From positions 32,001 to 96,000 of the forward strand of contig JAPDKB010000002.1 in assembly GCA_029258795.1 (NCBI GenBank): DNA of 64,000 nucleotides. Reading direction: 5' to 3'. The translations under genes were made by a program, and so were the position numbers. The DNA is from an archaeon. Its GTDB lineage: Archaea; EX4484-52; WAPT01. Position 1 is the first letter of the stretch; every line of letters starts with the position of its first letter. Under the pieces are notes generated by a model. The model had not been told where the DNA came from and made no database searches. It was given only the letters and a program-made list of their open reading frames with translations. Below, piece after piece: positions 2,247-59,357 of this stretch.

Positions 2247-3152
2247 ATGGAAATGGATGATAGGAAAAAGGGTTCGTTTCTAACTTTATGGACAGGAATG
2301 TGCTACCAATGGTTTGGCTCTTTTGTAAATCAGTATTTGGTAGAAACTTTCAGAGACATGCACGTTGATCTTAGAAGGGCCATGATTCCGTTAACTTTGG
2401 TGGAGTATCTGTCTTTGGCGTTGGGCACATCAGGAGTTGTGTTCTTTTTCATGTCTATCTTCCTTACCATGTTATTCACCCTGCTTTTCAGAAGCGTGCT
2501 ATTTGGCGTATTTGCAGGAGTGCTTGGAGGTTTCGTTTTTGCTATCGGAACATTCATTCTGTTTTACCTTTACCCATCTGTTGTGGTGGGAGAAAGAAAG
2601 AAAAAGATAGATGATACCCTTCCATTTGCCACCCTTTACATGGCAACTATGGCTGGGACAGGGGCTCCAATAGTTAGCATTTTCAGAATGTTATCTAAAT
2701 TTAAGGAATATGGAGAGGTGGCAAAGGAAGCCAAAAGGGTTGTGGAAACTGTGGAAATAACAGGAGCTCCAATAACCCGTGTGCTGGAGGATGTGGCTGA
2801 AAGAACACCGTCTGAAGCTTTTAGAGAATTACTGTGGGGGATAAGAAGCACCATAACTGTAGGAGGTGATTTAAGAACCTATCTTTACGAGAAGGCAAGA
2901 GGTTTTATACAGGAATATCGAAGAAGGTTAGCTGCCTATACAAACCAACTAGTAACCTTCCTCGAAATTTACATCAATGCTGTGATAATAGGCGTGGTGT
3001 TCTTTGTTGTACTTACGAGCATAATAGGAATTTTCGGAATTGACGCGAAAACAATATTGTTTATTCATTACGCACTGATATTCGTAGCGTTACCTTTAGC
3101 ATCTGTTGGGTTCATTGTGCTAATAAGAGGTATACAACCACACTCTGAATAA
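2247..3152 (+). CDS. Type II secretion F-domain / TadC-like platform protein
   Basis: IDDTLPFATLYM and LSKFKEYGEVAKE motifs, several TM helices, follows the ATPase. Confidence 0.88.
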   Translation: MEMDDRKKGSFLTLWTGMCYQWFGSFVNQYLVETFRDMHVDLRRAMIPLTLVEYLSLALGTSGVVFFFMSIFLTMLFTLLFRSVLFGVFAGVLGGFVFAIGTFILFYLYPSVVVGERKKKIDDTLPFATLYMATMAGTGAPIVSIFRMLSKFKEYGEVAKEAKRVVETVEITGAPITRVLEDVAERTPSEAFRELLWGIRSTITVGGDLRTYLYEKARGFIQEYRRRLAAYTNQLVTFLEIYINAVIIGVVFFVVLTSIIGIFGIDAKTILFIHYALIFVALPLASVGFIVLIRGIQPHSE

Positions 3153-3156
3153 AAAA

Positions 3157-4155
3157 TTGGCGGTGCGTGTCATGTTCGAGAGTTTGCTTGGGGGAGGAAG
3201 CAAACAGAAAAAAAGGAAAACACTTGATGAAAAGAAAACGTTCTATGATTACCGTTATTTACTCATAATCATGTTCTTCATTCTTCTCTTCATAGGTATG
3301 TTGGCGAGCAGTATCAATCCAAAACTAATGTCGATGTTTGTTCTGCTTGGCATGTTTACATGCATCCTACCCTATTTTGCCCTAGAGTATTTTGAATTTG
3401 CCAAATACAAAAAAATGGAGGAATATTTTCCATTTTTTCTGAGGGACTTTGCTGAAGCCATAAGAAGCGGGATGACCTTTCCCAGTGCTTTAAGAATGAC
3501 AGCAAAGATAGATTATGGCGCTCTTTCAGTCGAGATAAGGAGGGCTGCAGCCCAGCTTTCTTGGGGCATACCTTTTGTTAAAGTGCTCCGAAGGTTTGGA
3601 GAAAGGCTCAAAGGAAGCAAGGTATTAAAACAGAGCATAGCAATTATAATAGAAACGTTCAATTCCGGAGGAGATGTTGCCACAACGATGGACTCATTGG
3701 CTGACAGCATGAGTACTATTCGTGAAATGGAACTGGAAAGGAAAGCAGCACTCCAGCAGCAGGTGATGATTATATATATTGTTTTTATCATCTTTCTGGG
3801 TTTACTTGTGGGTATAGACAAATTCCTGATAACCAGATTCATGAGCACCTTCCAGACCATAGAACAGGCATCTGAAGCTACGCAATCGATGGGTTTCGGA
3901 GGATTTCAGTTTAGAGCTGAGGATTACTGCGACTACGCCATTGCTTCTCCAGTATGCGGCTTTGGCAGGATGTTCGGGTTTTCAGGAGATGACCTATATT
4001 ACAAATCCATCTTTTTATTGATGGCGCTGATTCAAAGTGTGTGCCAGGGTATATTGATCGGAGTTATGCTTGAGAATAGCGCTAAAGCAGGATTTAAGCA
4101 CGTGGCTATAATGATGGCCCTGTCACTTGTGGCGCTTCCTATTTTCCTAGGGTGA
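3157..4155 (+). CDS. Second TadC/FlaJ-like platform protein
   Basis: FPFFLRDFAEAIRSG, DYGALSVEI, QLSWG, SGGDV motifs. Confidence 0.88.
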   Translation: MAVRVMFESLLGGGSKQKKRKTLDEKKTFYDYRYLLIIMFFILLFIGMLASSINPKLMSMFVLLGMFTCILPYFALEYFEFAKYKKMEEYFPFFLRDFAEAIRSGMTFPSALRMTAKIDYGALSVEIRRAAAQLSWGIPFVKVLRRFGERLKGSKVLKQSIAIIIETFNSGGDVATTMDSLADSMSTIREMELERKAALQQQVMIIYIVFIIFLGLLVGIDKFLITRFMSTFQTIEQASEATQSMGFGGFQFRAEDYCDYAIASPVCGFGRMFGFSGDDLYYKSIFLLMALIQSVCQGILIGVMLENSAKAGFKHVAIMMALSLVALPIFLG

Positions 4156-4161
4156 TGAAAG

Positions 4162-4866
4162 TTGAAAATGAAAAAAGCTCAGACGAATCTTGATTTTGCA
4201 ACCAGTATAAGTGTCTTTATAGTAGTGCTGGGTTTCTATTTTTATTATGTTTCAGGTCAGATAGCGGCAAGCACTGTGAAGCTAGATGAATTGAAGGGCG
4301 AATCAGAATGCGCACTAGCAGCAACGGCTTTGATGAACAAGTTGGTGCTGAACAATATGAGTTTGAATGAAAATTATTTCAATTCTGCTATTAAGGGGTG
4401 TATCGTATCCCCTCCACCTAATTCTCCAGACTGGGACGCTTACCAAGCCTTTCTTCAAAGCATAAATCTCACGAAAAGAAGCGCGTACTTAAGGATGGAT
4501 TTACTCCTCACAACTTCATACCTCATGAAAGTAACGGAAGAGTACACAGAAGGCACTCTCTATTTTAATCACAAAACCTATCCTGTGGTGTGTAATGTAA
4601 CTGCAAATTCAATTATGATAAATAATACGGGGCCGTATAAGGTTGGGGCGAATGTAACACTTGACAGTGTGAAGTTTACTGTTCATTGGATTGATCCCTC
4701 TTGCCAATACGCTGTGCTGAAGAATGTGAGGCCCTTCCACCAGTGTGGTGCTCTTCCTTCAATAGCATTAAGTGGTAGAGGTATTGGGGGAGGAAGGCAA
4801 GTGAAATATGTGTTCTTTGCTGTTAAGGATGGACAGCTTCTCAGGGTGACGTTTTTATGCATGTAA
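4162..4866 (+). CDS. Prepilin-like protein with class III signal peptide
   Basis: MKKAQ followed by a hydrophobic helix; in pilus operon. Confidence 0.7.
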   Translation: MKMKKAQTNLDFATSISVFIVVLGFYFYYVSGQIAASTVKLDELKGESECALAATALMNKLVLNNMSLNENYFNSAIKGCIVSPPPNSPDWDAYQAFLQSINLTKRSAYLRMDLLLTTSYLMKVTEEYTEGTLYFNHKTYPVVCNVTANSIMINNTGPYKVGANVTLDSVKFTVHWIDPSCQYAVLKNVRPFHQCGALPSIALSGRGIGGGRQVKYVFFAVKDGQLLRVTFLCM

Positions 4867-6545
4867 AAAAGAAAGGATTCCTAAAAACTCTTGAGGCAGT
4901 TATAGCAGGATTACTTCTCCTTTCCTACATGGTGTGGTTCTCCGCAAAGCCAGTGGAGGTGAGAGGGCTGGAAGCGAAGAACTACAAGCTTTATGCAACC
5001 CTTCTCATGGCTTCATTGAATTCAAACGTCTCGGATGTGCTTTTGAAAGCAGATGAAGATAGCGCATCAGAACTTTTAAGGGAGCTCAGTGGAACGGAGG
5101 CGAGGATGAGGTTTCACCTCAAAGAAATTCCTAGGAAGGAGATATGGGTAGGATATCTTCTTGAACCAAAAAACAAGCACAATGTGACTTTAGATCTATC
5201 CGTCGATGAAACAAATTGTAGTAGCACCTCCAAATGCACCGTTTTTGGAGCGAAAAGCACCTGTGCAGAATTTAGGTTGGGCTCTCACACGTTGTATTTC
5301 GTTAACAGAACTTATGTGGCTCCATTAAATTCTAGCGACCAGTGTGATCCCAACTTGCTTATACCCGTACAAGGGTACTTTGATTACAACGGAAAAGAAT
5401 ATTACGTCTTTGCTCGGGTTATCCAGAATTCACAATCTAACTATACATTGGTTTTTCTTAATCACACAACTTATCAAATAAACTTCTACAATCCACATCC
5501 TTCATTGTTCCACAGATTTTATTTGAATGGAAAGGAAATTTACCTTTATTTCACCCCCGTGACTTACGACATGCTAACTCTAGATTTAGATGCGATCATT
5601 ATTGTCAATAGAACACTAGCTCAGATAAGCGATGATGAACTGGAAGCAATTTCAAGATTTGCGGAAAGTGGTGGTGGAATCCTGTTGGTCAATGATGTGG
5701 ATAAACAGTATGACATTCTAAATCTCATTGGACTAAAATGGAACGGTTCAGCATCCGGACCAGATGGAAGTGATAGTGTGTTTTTAGATATTCTCAAAAA
5801 AAACTATGTTAAAGGTTACGAATTCGTTGAGTTTTTCGAACACGCTTATTATCCTGTAACAATGGACTATTTGAATCTTTCACGACCTGGTGTGAATGTA
5901 AGTTGTATTTCTTATTCTGGAATTGTTTTTGAGGGAAATCTCACTGTGAGGGATAAGGTATATCCGTTTATCGTGGTGAACGATACAACATCTCCGTTTT
6001 ACGATACTGTTTATGTTAGTAAGGACGGTGACTGGGATTTCTGTGATGGTGACAACAGCACTCCCATAAAAGAAAAAGATGTGTTTGAGCTGGAGGATAG
6101 CAGCAGTGGTGTGGTAAACAACATCACACTGGAAAAAATACCGGGGACTCTACATACTGGGGCAGTGTACTTTACATTTAACAGGAATCACAGATTTAGA
6201 GATATGTCTCTGGCTGTTGGCACAAATAAGAACATGCTCATCCCCGTCAAAAACGACACAACCAGAATAATCATTCATTCAGAAATGGAACGGGTTGGGG
6301 GTACATTTCCAGCTCCTGTACTCATATTACAGGAGATAAATAATACCTACCGAGCTGGATGGATGACCTCGAGCTTAAAAGGAGATGATGAATGGAAGAT
6401 ACTAAGAGATGCGGTGCTCTGGGTTGCAAGAAAGGTATCCTATGCAGCGTTACGCGAGCAAGGTTACACATATTCAGTATCCTTCCCCATTGCATGGGTC
6501 AACGAAACAAAACTGATGGGTATAGCCGAGTTGAGAATATGGTGA
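4857..6545 (+). CDS. Large prepilin-like/adhesin protein with class III signal peptide
   Basis: KKKG|FLKTLEAVIA N-terminus; many N-x-S/T sequons; Cys pairs. Confidence 0.65.
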   Translation: MHVKKKGFLKTLEAVIAGLLLLSYMVWFSAKPVEVRGLEAKNYKLYATLLMASLNSNVSDVLLKADEDSASELLRELSGTEARMRFHLKEIPRKEIWVGYLLEPKNKHNVTLDLSVDETNCSSTSKCTVFGAKSTCAEFRLGSHTLYFVNRTYVAPLNSSDQCDPNLLIPVQGYFDYNGKEYYVFARVIQNSQSNYTLVFLNHTTYQINFYNPHPSLFHRFYLNGKEIYLYFTPVTYDMLTLDLDAIIIVNRTLAQISDDELEAISRFAESGGGILLVNDVDKQYDILNLIGLKWNGSASGPDGSDSVFLDILKKNYVKGYEFVEFFEHAYYPVTMDYLNLSRPGVNVSCISYSGIVFEGNLTVRDKVYPFIVVNDTTSPFYDTVYVSKDGDWDFCDGDNSTPIKEKDVFELEDSSSGVVNNITLEKIPGTLHTGAVYFTFNRNHRFRDMSLAVGTNKNMLIPVKNDTTRIIIHSEMERVGGTFPAPVLILQEINNTYRAGWMTSSLKGDDEWKILRDAVLWVARKVSYAALREQGYTYSVSFPIAWVNETKLMGIAELRIW

Positions 6546-14755: not shown

Positions 14756-14833
14756 AGCGGGGTAGAGCAGCCTGGAGTGCTCGCCGGGCTCATAACCCGG
14801 AGGTCGCAGGTTCAAATCCTGCCCCCGCTACCA
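14756..14833 (+). tRNA. Initiator tRNA-Met(CAT), no intron
   Basis: A1-U72; anticodon stem CCGGG-CTCATAA-CCCGG with three G-C pairs; CCA encoded. Confidence 0.95.
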
Positions 14834-22935: not shown

Positions 22936-23059
22936 AAAAAGTAAGCATGTTTTGGCTTCGTTTCCTTATATAAAGGGACAAGCAATTGCGACTTACTTAT
23001 TCATATTATATCGTTTGGATAGAGGATGCTTGGAACTTTTGAAGTGAGAGGCTTTGGGA

Positions 23060-23320
23060 CACCTATGTAAGCCACCTCCAAACATTTTTATTGGTTATAA
23101 GCTATATATCTCTATCGAACAAACACCTATTCGCGGTCTAAGCCGCAGTATAGCATCTTCGTTCATGGGGATAGGGAAAGCTTAATCAAAATGTCGCAGT
23201 CTTAAGCTGCATGTCCCAAGTCAAGCTTTTCCCTATCCCCTAAACATTTCCTTTCTTTTAAGCATGAAGTAAATTGCAATGCATAACTTTCTTGCTGCAG
23301 CAACTATTGTTTTGTGTGCT
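23060..23320 (-). mobile_element. Truncated IS110-family (IS1111-type) element: recombinase C-terminus plus 3' non-coding end
   Basis: Minus-strand frame KTIVAAARKLCIAIYFMLKRKEMFRG* (stop 23233) resembles IS110 C-termini; junction GGCTTTGGGA-CA-CCTAT at 23050-23066. Confidence 0.75.
23117..23240 (-). ncRNA. Putative bridge/seek RNA with target-binding loop (23167-23240) and donor-binding loop (23117-23164)
   Basis: Two stem/internal-loop/apical-hairpin modules whose loop strands match the junction and an IS end; a G-U pair forms only on the minus strand. Confidence 0.78.
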
Positions 23321-23383
23321 TCATAAATACCCACGGTGAGAGTCTGGGTCTTCTGGTGGCTATGCCCGACCGGGTTTTTTGAT

Positions 23384-24264
23384 ATGAGAGTGTGCATTGT
23401 TGGTCCTGCGAATCCTGGCGAGACAGAGATAGCTCTCACCGAGGCCGCCAAAAAGCGCTATTCCAAGGTATTGTACGCGCCCTTTTCCCGTCTCAGGATA
23501 GAAATGGTTGCCGGAGAGCCGAGAGCCTTCTACAAGGAATAGACCTTTCAGAGTTTGACATTGTCATACCCCGCGTCAGGAGGAGCGACGCGGATTTCGC
23601 ATACGTCCTCTTAGGGGTTCTCGAGGACCTGGGAGTCTATTCTCCAATCTCGAGGGACAGCATTCTCTACGGGTTCAACGAGTATCTCATACCTTTCATT
23701 CTCGGGAGGGCTGGGGTCGAGACCCTCACAACCCTCCTGGGCTCTACCCGGGCCGCCCTCGAGAAATCGATCTCGAGGCTGAGGTTCCCCGTGGTGGTAA
23801 AACTCCCCCACAACAAGGACGGGGCAATGATAGTGGACAGCGAGAAGATCGCCAGGTGCGTGCTCGACACTCTCGAGAGCCTCGGAGAGCCGATAATAGT
23901 CCAGGAGATGCTCGAGGGATCTGAGAGCTTCAGCATCCTCTATATCGGGGAGAGAACATATTGCATAGAAAAGCACAACGGGACCGCGAGAAAGAGAAAG
24001 CTTGGCATAGAAGAAAAGCGGACCGCGAGGCGCATGACATCCCTCCTGGGAGCGAGCGTGTGTCAGCTGAACGGAATGATCTCTGGAGATAGGCTCGTGG
24101 TCATAGACCTCAACATCAACCCCTGGGTGCACAGACTCCAGGAGCACTTCAAGACCAACCTGTTCGAAAAGATCCTGGACCACCTGGAGAGCGGGTACTC
24201 TTCCTCTCGACGGGGCACTATCCTAGACAAGTTCCTGAAATGGTTCGAGGAGATGAGGTGGTAG
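23384..24264 (+). pseudogene. RimK-like ATP-grasp protein, frameshifted near 23537
   Basis: N-part MRVCIVGP...FYK joins (G)IDLSEFDIVIPR in another frame; FPVVVKLP, PIIVQEM, VIDLNINP. Confidence 0.7.
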
Positions 24265-24266
24265 AG

Positions 24267-24430
24267 TGTACAACGTTCTCATTACGGCATCGCCAAGAGT
24301 CTTGTGGACTACCCGCCAGCTTATTGAGGAGGGCAGGAAGAAGTTCAACCTCCACGTTGTCTCTCTATATGTTATCAATATTGAGGTTTCTCCCGGGATC
24401 GTCTCGTGCAGGCACAAGCGCTATTTATAA
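24267..24430 (+). pseudogene. Probable N-terminal fragment of a second RimK-like gene
   Basis: VYNVLITASPRVLWTTRQLIEEGRKKF resembles RimK N-termini; ends at a compositional shift. Confidence 0.45.
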
Positions 24431-24434
24431 ACGT

Positions 24435-25718
24435 TTAGTTTTTGCGGGAGAATAAGTCCTTATAATGACCCCAGTCCAGAATCTCCTTTAAGAAATCATT
24501 TATTTTAGACTCCAACATTATGAGCCTTCCATCAGGGTCATAAACCCTTTCCAGAATATTTATGCGCTCGTCCAAAGTATTCCCATTTAAGCCTTGATAA
24601 AGAGGAGAGGAAAGAACTTCATACAGTTTTTTAAGAATTTGTTCTTCACAAGCAAGAGCTTTACATTCCCGGATTTCCGATTTATATTTTTTAATTTCTT
24701 CAACCCTATTCTTCATTATTGAAATGCTTTCGCTTATTTTCTTCAGTTTTTCTTCACAATCCTCTACTCCCTTTATACTGTATTTCTTAAGCCAGATTTT
24801 TAATATCTGTGGCGGGAAAGTTTTCGGATTCTCTAGTATAATCCCCGAAAGATTTTCATCTCTTACTACCGAATTAATTTCATTGAAGATATCATCTCTG
24901 TTTATAACGTAATCCCATTTTATTTCTATACCTTCCCGTGTTTTTTTTCCAAATTTATTCAACATATTAACAAAACTTCTCGGCAGATTGTTTGAATGTT
25001 TCTCCCACATATACTCTATTTTTCTGTCAGCTTTCACTCTATAGACTGAAAATAGACACGAAGAAAGTGGAGGTTCTACGCAGATTGGAAGACCTGAGAT
25101 GTCTTCCAGACCTGAGATCTCTTCCAGATTTTCAGATTCTATATAACGATTATACTCATAGATTGGGTTTTTTGTTGATATTATAATTCTCTTGCCTTCA
25201 TCCCGTTGCTCAAGGGCTATTAATGCAAGTTCATTCATGACAGCTTTTCCTATGTCTCTTGTAGCTTCTCTTGCGACAAGATCTCCTACGTAGTCCCAGT
25301 TATCGATGCATACAACCTCTGCCTCATTTATAAGCTTTTTTGGGTCAGTTAGATCGGCTTTTAGGGTCCATTCCCATTTTTCTCTATTTTCCTCTGAAAG
25401 ATATATTCTAGGGTCAAATGCCTTTATATCTCCTGTGAAGATATCGAAATATACTCCTGCAGGAAATATATCTTCTTCCGCTAAAATATTAAACGCAGCT
25501 AGAATTCTGGTGGTTTTTCCTATACCTCTTGTTCCACGAAGTTCTATATTATCTGACTTGATCCTATCTGCTAATATTTTCGAGTCCAAATAATATACTT
25601 TACATTTTAGTATGTCATTCAATAGATTATAGTCCATTTCTTCCGCTCTGAGCGGAATATTCGGAGAGTAATCTTCTGATGTCACTTGATTTGGACTTTT
25701 AATATCAGTTTCCTTCAT
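24435..25718 (-). CDS. Uncharacterised P-loop NTPase
   Basis: Walker A GTRGIGKTT, Walker B-like VVCIDNWD; AT-rich; upstream ATG 25775 lies inside an IS TIR. Confidence 0.65.
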   Translation of the reverse strand: MKETDIKSPNQVTSEDYSPNIPLRAEEMDYNLLNDILKCKVYYLDSKILADRIKSDNIELRGTRGIGKTTRILAAFNILAEEDIFPAGVYFDIFTGDIKAFDPRIYLSEENREKWEWTLKADLTDPKKLINEAEVVCIDNWDYVGDLVAREATRDIGKAVMNELALIALEQRDEGKRIIISTKNPIYEYNRYIESENLEEISGLEDISGLPICVEPPLSSCLFSVYRVKADRKIEYMWEKHSNNLPRSFVNMLNKFGKKTREGIEIKWDYVINRDDIFNEINSVVRDENLSGIILENPKTFPPQILKIWLKKYSIKGVEDCEEKLKKISESISIMKNRVEEIKKYKSEIRECKALACEEQILKKLYEVLSSPLYQGLNGNTLDERINILERVYDPDGRLIMLESKINDFLKEILDWGHYKDLFSRKN

Positions 25719-25755
25719 AGATAGAAATTTTTGACATAAAATTTTAAATAATTTT

Positions 25756-26671
25756 GGCTCCACGCCATAAAACATATAAAAAACATTTAATTCGGCAAGG
25801 ATTCATAACAAAAACAAGAGCTTTCTCTATTCCATCATCCAATTAATTTCCCATAAATTCAAAAACGAAGAAAATTTTTTCATGTTCTTAAAACCGCGAA
25901 ACTTTCTGTATCTGTTCCTGAGCCATGAGATCAAACCTTCTGCCCTGTTATTGCTAAGAAAATAAATCATACCTTTATGAAAAACAATCTTTTTTTCAAA
26001 ATGAGCTATAACACGCTTAATCTTTCTAATTCTTAACCCCTTTCTCAGGGTTTTACTATCATATCCATACCATCCATCCGTTACTATTATCTCAGGTTTG
26101 TATCCCGCATTCTCTATAGCTTTTCTAAGCAATCTAACAACTTCTTTGCTTTCCCTTCTATCACTAACATGCATTGCCATAATTCTTGATCTTTCATCGC
26201 AGCAAACATAAAGATAGTTCATTCTTCCCTTAGCTTTAACATACATCTCATCCAAATGCCATACCTCTGCAATTTTTTCAAATTCCTTATTCTTTGCCTT
26301 AAGCTCTTTGAGAAACTTTTTATCCTTTCCAAATTTATGTATCCAGTTAAGAACAGTTCTTGCAGGAACTCTTATTCCTTTAAATTTTTCCATAATCTTC
26401 TCAACATCATAGGTTGAAACAACAAATCTTGAGTAAAGCCACAGGCAAAGCATAACAATCTCTTTATCATATCTTATCCTCGCAAATTCGTCCATACCTT
26501 TTTCTGAGAAAACGTAGAAACATTTTTTGCATCTGTATCTCTGGTATTTCTTATCTTTATGTTTGTAAAAACCCAGCTTCCATATATCTCTTGATGAGCA
26601 TCTGGGACATGAAATCTTCATGAATTTTTTATTATGAATGAGGTTATTTATATGTTTTTTGGCGTAGAACC
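25756..26671 (-). mobile_element. IS6-like element; transposase 25827-26621 with N-terminal Zn ribbon
   Basis: WHLDEMYV, IIVTDGWYGY, NNRAEG; 25-bp imperfect TIRs GGCTCCACGCCATAAAACATATAAA / GGTTCTACGCCAAAAAACATATAAA. Confidence 0.85.
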
Positions 26672-27547
26672 CATTAATTTCTCTATTACTGCCAGAGTTT
26701 TCCCTATTAAATTTGTTTTTAAATTAAGCAAAAATTCGAAAAAGCTTACCCATAAGCTAAGATATTTCTTGCTTATCCCCCTAAACACCCTATACCATGA
26801 TTTTAAAAAAGAAAATCTATTCTCTGCATTGTTAATATGAACATTGCCTTCCGCAAACCTTTTCTTGTTATGCGGGATTATTCCATGTTTATAACCTTTT
26901 CTCTCTATTTCCTTTGTATAAATAGGAAAGTCATCAGTATTTACTATAGAGCCTTTCTCAACATAAGTTTCGAGTAGCTCTAAAACAAGCTCTTCACTTA
27001 AGCCTTCCAGAGCTACGAAGAATATGCTCTTACCTTTTCTTTCAGTTAAAACTATGACTGGAGTTTTGCCTTCTTTTAGCCCACCTCTACCTTTAATTCC
27101 AGTTCCACCCCTCTTCATAGGCTTTCTAGAAAGCCTTCTATTACCCTTTTCACCAGCTGTTAGATAGGTTTCATCCATCTCAACATTAACTTTTAGCTTG
27201 GAAGCTATTTGCCTTGCAAGCAAATCTTGCTTGATTTTCTTAGCTGCTTTCCAAACATGCTCATATTTTCTACCAAGATCGATTGCTATTGAATAAATGC
27301 TTCTTCCAGCCGAATGCTCTTTTATTATATAAGACCATTCCCAAATCGGTAGCTTTGATTTATCGAATATCGTTTTGGTTCTATTGTTGAAAGTTCTTTT
27401 GCATTTTTTGCAAAGATAGCGTTGAAAGCCTTTCTTATCCTCACCCCTCTTAACAACCTCCTTTGACCCGCAGAAAACGCACCTTACTCCTTCTTTCCAT
27501 CTAAGCTTTTGGATTATTTCTATGCACTTCTCATCACCTGGGGGCAA
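26648..27547 (-). mobile_element. IS1595-family transposase; 3' end runs into the IS6 TIR, 5' end possibly frameshifted
   Basis: LRW..G..C..CGS Zn finger, VEMDETY, VNTDDFPIY, HINNAENRFSFLK, FRGISKKYL. Confidence 0.88.
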
Positions 27548-27641
27548 AATCTCTTGCAGTCAGCATACATTGTTATTTTATAGTTTTCTATTTTCGTTAT
27601 GAGATGTGAGCGAAAGCTTTTTGTAGTTGATTTTTTGAACT

Positions 27642-28457
27642 TTGTTTATGATGCCCGGTAAAAAAGCTGTGATTCTAATAGGAGGAATGATAATGGTTGT
27701 GGCAGTTCTGAGCTTATGCGTGCAGAAACCGGAAGAAGGGGCACCCACGATTCAGCCAGGAAAGGAATTAAAGCTTTCTGATTTCCCTGAAGTGTTTAGC
27801 GAGAGTACTTTGATTGTTGTTGGAGACAACGCTTCTGAGGTTGAAGTTCAAGCAGCTAATGAAATTGCTGAATATTTGGAGGATGAGACCGGGAATAAAC
27901 CTTTGATAAAGAAGTATTCTGAGGTTAGTGAGGAAGATAAGAGAAATTACAACTTGATTATTGTTGGCGCTTCTAATTCTAACCCTATGCTAAGGAAAGT
28001 CTCTGAGGAATGTACAAGAAAGAACTTCAAAAAATTAGAATTTAAGGGAGTTAATAGTTATTGGCAGGGCACAGGTAAAGGATACATACTTATTTTAGAA
28101 AACTTATGGTCGACAAGTAAATGTATGTTGATTGTTGATGGATATGACAGCAGCGGGCTAGAATCTGCAGTTAGCACCCTTTTAAATACAGATATAATTA
28201 TGTCCATAAACAATAGCGGTATTTTAGTAAAATTAGAGAGTAGTACTCGAATACAAACTCTTCCAGTGTCTAAACTTTCAAAAATAGTGGCTAAAGATAT
28301 TGCAGCAGAGTATTTGATAAAACGATGTCAAACTATTCCTGAGGATAGTTTTAAGCTGAAAGTGTCGGATTTTGGAGATTACTGGCTAATTGAAGGAGGC
28401 TGTATCAAACTTCTAGTAGATAAAAATAATGGTTTTGTAGAGGAGGTGAAATCTTGA
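27642..28457 (+). CDS. Exported/lipoprotein-like protein with S-layer-associated domain
   Basis: Signal peptide ending LSLC; IVVGDNASEVEVQAANEIAEYL, NLIIVG. Confidence 0.6.
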   Translation: MFMMPGKKAVILIGGMIMVVAVLSLCVQKPEEGAPTIQPGKELKLSDFPEVFSESTLIVVGDNASEVEVQAANEIAEYLEDETGNKPLIKKYSEVSEEDKRNYNLIIVGASNSNPMLRKVSEECTRKNFKKLEFKGVNSYWQGTGKGYILILENLWSTSKCMLIVDGYDSSGLESAVSTLLNTDIIMSINNSGILVKLESSTRIQTLPVSKLSKIVAKDIAAEYLIKRCQTIPEDSFKLKVSDFGDYWLIEGGCIKLLVDKNNGFVEEVKS

Positions 28458-28577
28458 AGGCCAATTAATGACCTTCTTTGTATTATTCGTTCTCTTGTGT
28501 CCTACTGCATACGACATTCTATCATCGAGATACTCTCTAAAATTCTATAGTAGTAACCAACTTTTGAAAGTTCACAT

Positions 28578-29506
28578 TCATGTATTATCACCTCCTACTA
28601 ACATGGAACCGTCGCTACATCCTTCAGCCTGGCATGGAACTTTTACATTTTTTAAACCCCAGTCGTGGATCACTACTAAATTTAGACTCTTATTTAGATT
28701 AATCACAGCACAACTATGGTTGACAATATAGTTCAGAGTTGGATAACCTACGAAATAAGTTTCGTTTGATGATAAAAAGCTCTTGTTAACAATTATTCTC
28801 CCGTAATATTTATCTTCGCCAACCTGGTGTAAAGGTGCTGTAACTATTTCTTTAATCGACTCGAACGTTCTTGTACTTTTATTATATCCGATCAATTGAT
28901 ATAAAGTCACTACTTTAGGTGGCTCTCCACTTAACTCATATTTTGGATCTGATGGTTCATCTGTTAGAACTAAAACATCTATTCTGATCTTGTCCTTAAT
29001 GCTTGGAGCAATTACTACACTGGTTTCATTTTTAATCAGTGCAATCGGGTTTAGTTCAAGTCCCGCACTATACACCCCCACTCATCCCACCCTTCAACCA
29101 GTAACATCGCCTTATTTTTATTCCAAGGATTCCTCAAAATTTCCAAAACACCCTTACCCTCTCCCGGAAATGTATCATTAACTTCCAAAACATCAACCAT
29201 AGAATAAACTTCTATCAGCATGAGATTGGAATTCGGCGTGCCAACAACAACTAAATTGTGGTTTCTTTTATCTTTCTCCGTGATTTCAGAATATTTTTTT
29301 ATTAAGGGTTTATCCCCTGTTTCATTTTCCAAATAAGAGGTAATCTCGTTTGCGGCTTGCAATTCAATCTCAGAAGCATTATCACCAACGATAATTAAGG
29401 TATTATTCCCGAAATTTTGCCAGAGGAAAATGCCTATTATCAAAAGGATTAAAATTACGGTTCCTGCAATAATTAAGATCTTTCTGTTCATCATAATGTT
29501 TATCAT
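28578..29506 (-). pseudogene. Paralogous S-layer-associated protein, frameshifted in a G5 run near 29075-29079
   Basis: IVGDNASEIELQAANEI...VEGWDEWG continues as VYSAGLEL in the adjacent frame. Confidence 0.7.
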
Positions 29507-29552
29507 TAAGTCTCATTATGCTTTTTTAATTATAAAATTTACGGCTCCAAGC

Positions 29553-30696
29553 GGCTTCGAGACAAAATTCATAGCTTGAGTTTTCGAGCTATGAAGATCA
29601 GAACTCCATACCACAAAAATTAGTTAGCTAAAACATTTCCGTATAAAAAACCATATTATACAGCATGGGGGATAAAAAGAAAAGAAAAATAACAACCGAG
29701 GAAATAAGAGACATTACAAACAAACTTGATAAAATAATCAAATATTACAAAGAGAAATACGGGGAAGATAAGAGCAGGAGAGACTGGCGTACATATGAGC
29801 AGAGAAGAACATTAAGGATGAAGCAGGCAGGGAGAGAGCTAAAAAATCTTATAGAAAGGGCTGCAGAGAATATAGAAATAGCTAAGGATAACAACAGGGG
29901 AAGAAAGCCGAAGCTTACAGCCAAGGACAAAGCCCTGATCATTCTTATAAAGGAAATATTCGATCTGAGCAACAGAGAACTTGCTGATATGATATTCATC
30001 TTTTCCTTAATGGCAGGAGTTGATGTAAGTTATAAAACCATTGAGAGAGCTTACGATGATGAGCTTGTTAAGTTAAGCCTGCACAACTTATTCGTTCTCA
30101 TGGTTAAGGAAAAGATTATAGATGATGTTGAGCTTGCTGGAGATGGAACTGGATACAGCTTGAGCATTAAGAAGCAATATGCTGATATTGAGGATGAGGG
30201 AAAGCAAAGAAAGGATTTCGTTTATTACTTTGCTCTGCTCGATTTAAGAACAAATCTTTATGTTGGATATGGCTACAGTAAAAGGTCGGAGAGGGATGCT
30301 TTTGATAAGGCCATGAAAATTATGAGTAAGCTCGGCATTAATGTTAAGAGTGTGAGGCTTGATAGATATTATTCAAGCAACGCTGTGGTTAAAGAATATT
30401 TTGATGATAAGGATGTTAAGCTTTATTTAATTCCCAAGAAGAATGCTTCTGTTAAAGGCTGTAAGAAATGGAAGGAAGTTATGCATGGCTTTGCTGATGA
30501 TGTTTACGGGTTTTTGCGTGAGTATTTTAAAAGGAATAAAGTTGAAAGCATGTTTTCCTTTGATAAGCGTAAGTTTTCTTCTCGATTAAGGGTCAGGAAG
30601 GATGAGAGAATTGCTACGAGCTTGCTTGCAAGGACTGTCTTGCATAATTTGTTTTGGTTTTATGGTTAGCTATTGGGTTAATTTTGTCCCAAAGCC
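29553..30696 (+). mobile_element. IS5-like/ISNCY DDE insertion sequence; intact transposase 29665-30669
   Basis: GDGTGYS, RLDRYYS, RNKVESMFS; 17-bp TIRs GGCTTCGAGACAAAATT (29553-29569) / AATTTTGTCCCAAAGCC (30680-30696). Confidence 0.85.
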
Positions 30697-30744
30697 ACCA
30701 CAACCACAAACTTTATATACGACGATCGCAATATTTCTATCTGG

Positions 30745-31773
30745 GTGATTTGGATGGCGGAGAATTCTCCTAATTACCGATATGATCCTCTCATAGGCGA
30801 GCTTTACTTGAATAAAATCTCGTGTGAGTTAACAACCAGAAAGTTTCACAATGACTTGAGGAGGGAGTTCGAGGCCATTCTGGGCGCGGTAGCTAAATCC
30901 ATGTTCTACACGGTGGGTAAGGTAACGGGCATGATTGTTGCAAAGTACTTTGATGATATTGATGTGCTTTCGTGGATGGGTTGGGGTGTGCCTCTGGTTA
31001 AAAAAGATGGAAGCGTGGAAGTTAAAAATTCTTACATGACCATGTATCGGAGCGAGATAGGCAAGAAGTCATGCGATATCGTTGCAGGATTTCTGGCAGG
31101 GTGGTTCAGTAGGAAGGAAAAGGATAATGTCGATTTTATAGAATCGAGGTGCGCCTCAACCACTAAGTTCAAGACCTGCAGGTTTGAAAGGGTTGAAAAG
31201 AATGTGGCTGTCGAAGTACCTAAAATCAGGATGAAGAAGCCCAGAGAACACCTGAAAAATGTGAATATAAACCTGAAACCATCCAGTGGTGAGATAATTT
31301 ATAGGGGAGATTCGTCTCTCATCATTCCACGTGGCTTTACCGCGATCTTTCAGAGGGAATTTGAAAGGGTGATCGGGGCTGTTGCTTCCAGAAAAATGTA
31401 CGAAGTTGTGAAGAAAATAAGTTATGAGGCAGTTGTGAAGGAGCAGGGGTTCAGGTTTATTGGACTTGCTATTCTTCCCAAATTCATCCGTGCAAAGCTG
31501 CTTCTTCATGAAGAGCTTGTGCAGCTACCCGAAAGAGGTTTTGGGAATGTCAGGGTTTTAAGACTGGATTTGAAGGAAGGGATTCTGCTGGAAATTGATA
31601 ATTCTTACAACGCATTCACCTACGGTAAGGTTGGCAAGCCCGTGTGTCACACGCTTGCAGGAGTTCTTGCGGGAGGTGCCAAGGCGGTGATTGGCGGAGA
31701 TTGGGAATGCGTGGAGAATAAATGCGTTGCTGCAGGAGATGGTGTCTGCGAGTTCGAGTTGAAGCCGGCGTGA
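30745..31773 (+). CDS. Tandem double-V4R domain protein
   Basis: Two repeats: GWG..NSY..CDIVAG..ESRC..CRF and GFG..NSY..CHTLAG..ENKCVAAGDGVCEF. Confidence 0.85.
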   Translation: MIWMAENSPNYRYDPLIGELYLNKISCELTTRKFHNDLRREFEAILGAVAKSMFYTVGKVTGMIVAKYFDDIDVLSWMGWGVPLVKKDGSVEVKNSYMTMYRSEIGKKSCDIVAGFLAGWFSRKEKDNVDFIESRCASTTKFKTCRFERVEKNVAVEVPKIRMKKPREHLKNVNINLKPSSGEIIYRGDSSLIIPRGFTAIFQREFERVIGAVASRKMYEVVKKISYEAVVKEQGFRFIGLAILPKFIRAKLLLHEELVQLPERGFGNVRVLRLDLKEGILLEIDNSYNAFTYGKVGKPVCHTLAGVLAGGAKAVIGGDWECVENKCVAAGDGVCEFELKPA

Positions 31774-32034: not shown

Positions 32035-32175
32035 GCGGGGGTTGCCGAGCCTGGCCAAAGGCGCGGGGCTTAGGACTCCGTGGCTCAGTGCCTGCGTGGG
32101 TTCGAAGGCCGCTGTTCGGTGGCTGGGTTTTCAAGTCCGATCTTAACGCGGCCGGAACTCCCACCCCCCGCACCA
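32035..32175 (+). tRNA. tRNA-Leu(TAG) with 52-nt T-loop intron (32107-32158)
   Basis: CGGGG-CTTAGGA-CTCCG arm; BHB helix TTCG/CGGA; CCA. Confidence 0.9.
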
Positions 32176-59076: not shown

Positions 59077-59357
59077 GCGGCAGGGCTAGGCCGGGGAGCT
59101 AGCCCCTCCCTGTAACCGCAAACGGGCTAACGGCGGGGCCGAAAACCGGGGGGCGGGCGATTGGCGGCTCGCTGGGCAGCTTGCTGCTGAACAATGACTC
59201 TCTGCCCCCGAAGGCCGCTGTACCGGTGAACCGGGTCAGGCCCGGAAGGGAGCAGCCCTAAGCCGGTACTTCGGTGCTTCGGGATCAGCGGAGAGGAGGT
59301 AGGCAGCATCTCTGCCCGCGAGCTTAGCCGCGCTCCACCCCCGGGAAGCCCTGCCGC
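59077..59357 (+). ncRNA. ffs: Archaeal SRP (7S) RNA
   Basis: Helix 8 motif TCAGGCCCGGAAGGGAGCAG; terminal pairing GCGGCAGGGCT/AGCCCTGCCGC. Confidence 0.93.

Follow-up and report, generated by a model that had tools for sequence, protein, structure and literature searches.

A probable IS110-family remnant carrying an intact bridge RNA gene with guides for the terminal repeat of an IS5-family element in a hydrothermal-vent archaeon

The locus and its neighborhood

The window (the whole stretch of 64,000 nucleotides analyzed here) belongs to an assembly of 1.17 Mb in 23 contigs that is 96% complete. An archaeal SRP RNA at 59079-59355 (+ strand, 139 bits) identifies the host organism as an archaeon, in agreement with the earlier note on this DNA, which had been made from the sequence alone. 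At the gathering level, Rfam recognized only this SRP RNA and a tRNA in the window; the tRNA genes are a tRNA-Met at 14756-14833 (+) and a tRNA-Leu(tag) at 32044-32121 (+), the latter predicted by ARAGORN but missed by Rfam at its gathering score. Insertion sequences are abundant across positions 23000 to 31000. Two neighboring transposase genes of the minus strand were identified there by their Pfam domains, one of the IS6/IS240 type with a DDE transposase (PF13610, 25827-26621) and one of the IS1595 type (PF12762, 26648-27547), and an intact IS5-family element is located at 29553-30696 (+). The locus described here is on the minus strand at 23062-23304, and we consider it highly probable that what is left there is the 3' end of an IS110-family insertion sequence, cut off from the rest of an element with the layout of the IS1111 type, i.e., with the guide RNA downstream of the recombinase gene.

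Very little is left of the gene. An open reading frame on the minus strand (23233-23451) codes for 72 amino acids ending in ...HKTIVAAARKLCIAIYFMLKRKEMFRG, and its stop codon falls inside the 5' stem of the first module of the RNA. To delimit the part derived from the insertion sequence, we used assembled contigs of other sequencing runs (X2 to X4, from one study), judged from their ends and coordinates and not from reads. Long contigs of X2 to X4, from strains ca. 95% identical, align with the window up to 22939 and again from 23305 rightwards with other sequence between; the stretch 22940-23304 is absent at this place in them. As the homology upstream of their RimK-like gene starts at 23305, only the last ca. 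23 codons and the stop of the reading frame (23233-23304, VAAARKLCIAIYFMLKRKEMFRG*) are derived from the insertion sequence. The truncation junction is thus placed at 23304/23305, and the DNA from 23305 on is that which natively precedes the RimK-like gene. One 85-nt contig of X3 spans position 23305 as in the window.

The earlier note had spoken of an IS110-like C-terminal remnant, which has to be reduced to these 23 codons. The family assignment retains a match to NF033542 (“IS110 family RNA-guided transposase”), the sole NCBIfam model matching the last 40 residues of the reading frame (E 0.02, 14 bits versus a cut-off of 140, so weak). The alignment pairs residues 14-36 of these 40 with positions 320-342 of the 343 in the profile, and starts 4 residues upstream of the tail derived from the insertion sequence. 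The match is apt in position but weak. A Pfam search of the reading frame gave no match; Pfam domains stop short of the extreme C-terminus. With phmmer, the 72-aa reading frame matched two among 1.84 billion representatives, both over residues 10-45, i.e., outside the tail (residues 50-72) and for this reason irrelevant to it. A word-index protein search found no scoring longer protein and no candidate of similar length for the 72-aa frame, and BLASTP of the tail against the IS110 protein of a relative produced no alignment. The codons for VAAARKLCIA (23276-23304) have nucleotide matches of 93-96% over 24-29 nt to genes of two distant archaeal genomes, which we take to be heterodisulfide reductase subunit B genes, with AAARNLCIAE common to both; this match was judged a coincidence.

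Beyond the junction, a RimK-like ATP-grasp gene (PF08443, 23336-24264, +) is split in two frames, with the N-terminal part at 23336-23542 and the rest at 23392-24264. The contigs of the related strains have an extra G after 23371 and an extra A after 23537, so that the copy in the window is either frameshifted or affected by an assembly error. At 24386-24428, around the end of this gene and the start of the next one, the X3 and X4 strains carry 4593 other letters versus 41 nt here, a strain-specific insertion or replacement.

Structure of the RNA, its guides and their target

The RNA is read from 23240 to 23117 on the minus strand. It starts within the last codons of the reading frame and is followed by the terminal 55 nt of the element (23062-23116), the distance from the stop codon to the element end being about 170 nt. 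The earlier note had suggested folding minus strand 23117-23240, and the structure held: a 161-nt stretch of this strand folds at -54.2 kcal/mol (z = -4.9), and none of 200 shuffles was as good. The plus strand gives a weaker fold (-46.8) in which the outer stem of module 2 is lost; the single G-U pair of this stem is possible on the minus strand only. As far as predicted folds can tell, this agrees with transcription from the minus strand. Two modules, each made of a stem, an internal loop and a cap, follow one another along the RNA, and all the strings that the earlier note had quoted are found on the minus strand where it had placed them.

Module 1 (23167-23240), the putative target-binding loop, has an outer stem of 17 bp with one bulged A (23240-23223/23183-23167). 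Its 5' loop strand is GACTTGGGACAT (GACUUGGGACAU as RNA, 23222-23211) and its 3' strand GACATTTTGATT (GACAUUUUGAUU as RNA, 23195-23184), on either side of the cap GCAG-CUUAAGA-CUGC (GCAG-CTTAAGA-CTGC as DNA, 23210-23196). Module 2 (23117-23164), the putative donor-binding loop, is closed by a stem of 7 bp, GAACGAA/UUUGUUC (GAACGAA/TTTGTTC as DNA, 23164-23158/23123-23117). It carries the 5' strand GATGCTATACT (GAUGCUAUACU as RNA, 23157-23147), the cap GCGG-CUUAGA-CCGC (GCGG-CTTAGA-CCGC as DNA, 23146-23133) and the 3' strand GAATAGGTG (GAAUAGGUG as RNA, 23132-23124). All four loop strands open with GA straight after the helix, and one cap is almost a copy of the other, a regularity that suggests putative protein-binding sites. 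We saw no convincing archaeal promoter by eye at the right distance from the RNA. Its best Rfam matches were to unrelated families (E 0.79 at best), with none relevant, in a database that may hold no bridge RNA family.

On the + strand, the junction between the element and its flank reads GGCTTTGGGACA|CCTAT (23050-23066). The first 12 nt (23050-23061) are the outer part of a terminal inverted repeat of the IS5 family. They match without any difference the 12 nt with which the right repeat of the element at 29553-30696 begins, and they contain the left target TTGGGA and the core dinucleotide CA (23060-23061); the remainder of the IS5 copy at the junction is missing. Three of the four guides can be read directly against these sequences. 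The guide in the 5' strand of module 1 (LTG, TTGGGACA) equals the flank from 23054 to 23061, up to and including CA. Its partner in the 3' strand (RTG, ATTTTG) is the reverse complement of CAAAAT, made up of the core and the four bases AAAT, which come after CA only where the repeat is intact and uninterrupted. The 3' strand of module 2 (RDG, ATAGGTG) is the reverse complement of CACCTAT, i.e., CA plus the first inserted bases, and matches the last 7 nt of the element including the core (on the minus strand, the element ends in ...CATAGG beside it). The overlap of these three guides on CA (TG on the RNA strand) gives the target TTGGGA-CA-AAAT and a junction composed of left target, core and right donor, as the earlier note had proposed; LTG (8 nt) and RDG (7 nt), overlapping by the core, reproduce the whole of 23054-23066.

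The fourth guide, LDG, in the 5' loop strand of module 2, has the sequence UGCUAUA-CU; it contains no CA and so fits the core rule only in part. Of the donor predicted in the earlier note, (T)GCTATA-CA-CCTAT, the right half agrees with RDG, which corresponds to the surviving end plus the core, whereas the putative left half is not fully spelled by the RNA, LDG having CU and not CA at the core. In a working element, RDG (AUAGGUG) would pair with the core and the RNA-proximal end of the element (the “right end” in gene orientation), and LDG (UGCUAUAC) with the other end, now lost; the second junction predicted within IS5-type repeats would be ...TGCTATA-C(A)-AAATTAACC. The earlier note had advised looking for it, and in the genome itself the predicted combination of left donor, core and right target gave only two matches with 3 mismatches, both judged to be chance. 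One of them was rejected because it lies in a long uninterrupted coding-like stretch that departs from the repeat right after the match. Within the terminal 55 nt, TATAGC at 23109-23104 (minus strand) is the complement of GCUAUA in the 5' strand of the donor loop, and in the predicted fold of the plus strand these two segments pair; the complementarity may be due to chance (6 nt) or be what remains of the sequence of the lost end.

We estimated how often such a junction appears by chance, requiring a target-loop 8-mer and a donor-loop 7-mer to meet, with 2 nt in common, at any position within 250 nt downstream of the RNA. Among 2,000,000 random loop pairs, 14 produced a junction of equal quality (joint probability ca. 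7e-6), and a relaxed 6+6 junction appeared in 190 of 300,000. The RTG 6-mer ATTTTG was obtained in 1039 of 300,000 random 12-mers (ca. 3.5e-3). The agreement between guides and junction is therefore far beyond chance. Allowing for one mismatch at most, GGCTTTGGGACA has just two sites in the window, the junction and the end of the IS5-family (DDE) element (expected 0.30; at least two sites in 1 of 100 shuffles).

The IS5-family element codes for a transposase of 334 aa (29665-30669) that matched NF033579 (IS5 family, E 4.5e-16, 59 bits, under the cut-off of 140) and no Pfam family, and it is bounded by imperfect terminal inverted repeats of 17 nt. The repeat quoted in the earlier note is exact at the right end (GGCTTTGGGACAAAATT, 30696-30680, minus strand) and has two differences at the left end, where 29553-29569 reads GGCTTCGAGACAAAATT. 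Read inward, the right repeat begins GGCTTTGGGACAAAATTAACC... and contains the unoccupied target TTGGGACAAAAT at 30692-30681 (minus strand); the guide RTG, ATTTTG, matches the continuation of the intact repeat, in line with the earlier claim that module 1 is directed at this terminal repeat. The sequences thus support a reading in which the guides spell TTGGGA-CA-AAAT, a sequence from the inner portion of the IS5-family terminal inverted repeat. The element is ca. 6.5 kb away from the RNA locus, and its intact right-repeat target 7.5 kb.

This element is single-copy in the genome. A metagenome scan for IS5-type copies yielded one contig (L040, 1330 nt), which has a 92%-identical transposase and the exact 12-mer target in both repeats, so that the target is present in three of the four repeats examined in the two elements. 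Relatives of the transposase were detected in 8 of the 42 genomes of the order, including this one, the seven others being more distant, and the exact 12-mer target occurred at none of 41 other loci examined, those of the distant transposase relatives included. Past the right repeat of the metagenome contig (1261-1330), the start region of the transposase gene is repeated (compare 250-310), either a tandem copy or an assembly wrap-around. In another genome (locus L026, G007:C14:21000-29000, positions 2958-5379), a relative of the IS5-type transposase with 54-55% identity, the only split copy, is interrupted by a 440-aa reading frame, a case of nested insertion sequences. We rejected it as an IS110 insertion because the interrupting frame looks like an IS66-family transposase, which we presume it to be.

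Relatives, other copies and known systems

Such an element would be expected to encode a recombinase that joins a DEDD RuvC-like domain at the N-terminus (PF01548) to a transposase domain with a catalytic serine at the C-terminus (PF02371), but at the locus the gene is deleted. In a six-frame profile search of the assembly, PF02371 had no match at E ≤ 1 and PF01548 had only two, of 15.5 and 13.9 bits versus a cut-off of 29. Repeats are often missing from an assembly like this one, 96% complete and in 23 contigs, so a recombinase copy could be unassembled. Genes of IS110 type were found in 3 of the 42 genomes of the order, at five places; the 3' flanks of three of them, inspected by eye, had no resemblance to the RNA.

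Full copies, which the earlier note had proposed to look for, did not turn up, and no full-length relative was found in the genomes and metagenomes searched. With blastn, 23040-23400 matched only itself in its own genome and chance pieces of 27-35 nt in 61 relatives, 23062-23304 matched pieces of 24-32 nt only in 401 archaeal genomes, and there were no matches in plasmids. Exact patterns (the outer stem, or both caps) gave no hits in genome, metagenome and viral contigs. A single-sequence covariance model (R1) recovered the window only, both among the 42 genomes of the order (equal to the phylum as sampled), with no match in those bearing IS110 genes, and among 151 broad relatives, where the best other match had 17.6 bits (E 0.25). 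In the collections searched, neither a full-length element nor any RNA related to this one was thus recovered; published supplements with bridge RNA models may contain a related RNA.

Contigs of other sequencing runs do suggest that further copies exist in other contexts. The full stretch was present in one hydrothermal-vent run, possibly its source, and parts of it in the runs of another study, with no RNA run among them. The RNA region forms short contigs in X2 (23096-23279) and X3 (23058-23279), the latter with a single letter different over 222 nt, and in X4 the RNA occurs as two variants over 23135-23264, of which one has 9 differences and 3 gaps. X2, X3 and X4 share the joint between repeat fragment and element, preceded by a different outer flank at 23049/23050. 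In one X3 contig, ...CTTTATTTAA is joined to GACACCTAT at 23058, creating the flank TTTAAGA-CA, which could be readable by the same LTG via two G-T wobbles. The two alternative flank contexts are not in the genome studied here. The contigs support CA and not 23050 as the boundary of the element.

Among the systems described, the IS1111 group is the closest in layout. In its members ISEc11, ISPa11 and ISKpn4 the recombinase gene is followed by the guide RNA, as here (Siddiquee et al. 2024, PMC11187229; Durrant et al. 2024, PMC11208160), and they share with our element a long right non-coding end (about 170 nt here) and short segments complementary to both target strands that overlap at the insertion point. 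In the RNA of IS1111 members, 3' of the gene, the segment that pairs with the top strand precedes the one that pairs with the bottom strand, an order opposite to that of the IS110 type (PMC11187229). In gene orientation our target is AATTT-TG-TCCCAA, UUGGGACA in the 5' strand pairs with the top strand and AUUUUG in the 3' strand with the bottom one; by sequence, this order fits that of IS1111, assuming that the published “top” strand follows gene direction. Unlike many IS1111 orthologues, in which donor-binding nucleotides are located in a multi-loop (PMC11208160), both sites are here simple internal loops with near-identical caps. Also unlike the known members of the group, our element has neither a recombinase nor a left end, nor the subterminal inverted repeats (7-17 bp in IS1111), and its host is an archaeon.

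The resemblance to IS621 (Durrant 2024, Hiraizumi 2024) concerns the RNA itself. There are two modules, a target loop followed by a donor loop; the 5' loop strand corresponds to the left half plus the core (8 nt) and the 3' strand to the reverse complement of the core plus the right half (6-7 nt); a dinucleotide core is common to the guides, and the junction is ordered left target, core, right donor. The guides of IS621 are 8-9 nt on the 5' side and 4-7 nt on the 3' side, the core being included in the pairings (PMC11208160, in part), and the lengths found here, 8, 6 and 7 nt, are within these ranges. In contrast to IS621, the core is CA instead of CT, there is no sequence similarity, the RNA gene is at the opposite end of the element and transcribed towards that end with no evident 5' stem-loop, and LDG is without the full core.

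A preference for conserved sequences of other mobile elements also has precedents, IS4321 and IS5075 targeting Tn21-family repeats and ISEc21 the transposase genes of IS3 (the last in excerpts of PMC11187229); here the target is the terminal repeat of an element of the IS5 family, and the target family, the host domain and the sequences differ from those cases. Like the ssr9 RNA genes that exist unlinked to the ISPpu9 transposase in Pseudomonas putida (PMC12288879, as excerpted), this is an RNA gene associated with the IS110 family without an adjacent transposase gene, although in our case an end has been lost and the target and donor guides of the RNA are clear. Archaeal IS110 recombinases are also in print (662 in 2,835 archaeal genomes). 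Hence bridge RNAs or seekRNAs, their 3' location in IS1111, the targeting of mobile elements, unlinked RNA copies and archaeal recombinases were all already published. The novelty implied earlier has to be restricted in the same way, as transposon-end-targeting IS1111 members and an IS3-targeting IS110 member had been reported. What is new is the particular RNA without detectable relatives, with its twin simple loops, its core of CA and, in a vent archaeon, the use of an IS5-type repeat as target.

Origin and fate of the element

Taken together, the sequences support the identification of the two-loop structure 3' of the gene remnant as the bridge RNA of an IS110-family element. It should be noted that no family model recognizes this structure, that there are no homologues from which to derive covariation and that the copies in three runs share sequence out to 23050, as would be expected if it were some other structured element, such as a terminator or a repeat palindrome, with coincidental matches, or if GGCTTTGGGACA were part of the element itself. 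We regard this as extremely improbable given the joint probability of the junction (ca. 7e-6) and that of RTG (ca. 3.5e-3), and since the 12-mer is the end of a separate IS5-type element, copies of which occur without this RNA. Besides, one contig breaks at 23058, within the 12-mer, keeping GACA.

We infer the following order of events. An IS5-family element would already have been in place with its outer end at 23050 when the RNA-guided element, probably served by an IS110-family recombinase, entered its terminal inverted repeat at TTGGGA-CA|AAAT, for which the RNA would have been made and used. A later deletion or rearrangement would have taken the recombinase gene, except for its last ca. 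23 codons, together with the other end of the element and the remaining IS5 copy, fusing the remnant to the upstream region of the RimK-like gene at 23305. The survivor of this deletion would be a complete bridge RNA gene. The earlier statement that the recombinase gene is deleted at the locus and the RNA intact is borne out by the ca. 23 codons left and by the completeness of both modules.

The bridge RNA at 23240-23117 is therefore located in a truncated, dead element, and in this genome, with the recombinase gone, it is most likely a non-functional relic. The earlier note had regarded it as an orphan that could work in trans, which would make it a live stand-alone guide for an IS110-type recombinase located elsewhere (unassembled, on another replicon, or co-resident) and acting at IS5-type ends. 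The RNA gene is indeed complete and differs at only 1 of 222 nt from the contig of another study, an intact target is found 7.5 kb away, and there are precedents both for a seekRNA supporting transposition in trans in Escherichia coli assays (PMC11187229, in excerpts) and for transposase-unlinked RNA genes in ISPpu9/ssr9 (excerpts of PMC12288879). Near-identity, however, is equally predicted for a recent relic, nothing has inserted into the intact target that this genome offers, no IS110-type recombinase was found in the 96%-complete assembly, and the RNA gene has had its own upstream region deleted, with no convincing archaeal promoter detected by eye. The locus looks like a truncation and not like a designed stand-alone gene, and we consider such a live guide unsupported and very improbable.

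The separate short contigs of the RNA region in X2 and X3 (bounded by 23058/23096 and 23279), its presence in at least two further flank contexts and the precedent of the ssr9 module of ISPpu9 (PMC12288879, as excerpted) would also be expected of a non-autonomous unit similar to a MITE, with both ends and the RNA but no recombinase, mobilized as a whole. Single-letter variants between copies can nevertheless break contigs, and the in-frame tail of 23 codons is the expected leftover of a simple truncation. The reverse complement of TGCTATAC, the end predicted by LDG, is absent from 23246-23340, the AAAT-side half of the repeat is also absent, and the genome search for the second junction retrieved only the 3-mismatch chance matches. 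Since there is no second end at the locus, a unit of this kind is unsupported here, and we find it very improbable. We are as doubtful of a broader scenario in which the locus represents an unsampled archaeal lineage of bridge recombinases, characterized by twin simple loops, near-identical GCNG-CUUA(A)GA-CNGC caps, GA before each guide and a CA core, specialized in IS5-type ends, with the truncated copy kept as a working guide used in trans by the recombinase of other copies in the population.

Read as the relic of a dead element, the locus is a clean natural case in which the guides of a bridge RNA can be read against both the junction that survives and an undamaged target copy within the same window. 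It would represent an archaeal element of the IS110/IS1111 type homing into an IS5-family terminal repeat. The habit of nesting in other mobile DNA, already known for such elements, would thereby be extended to a vent archaeon. The relic itself is without obvious function and the locus is of interest mainly as a lead to the full-length element. If the latter were recovered, a compact and possibly thermophile-derived bridge recombinase with a CA core would join the known set.
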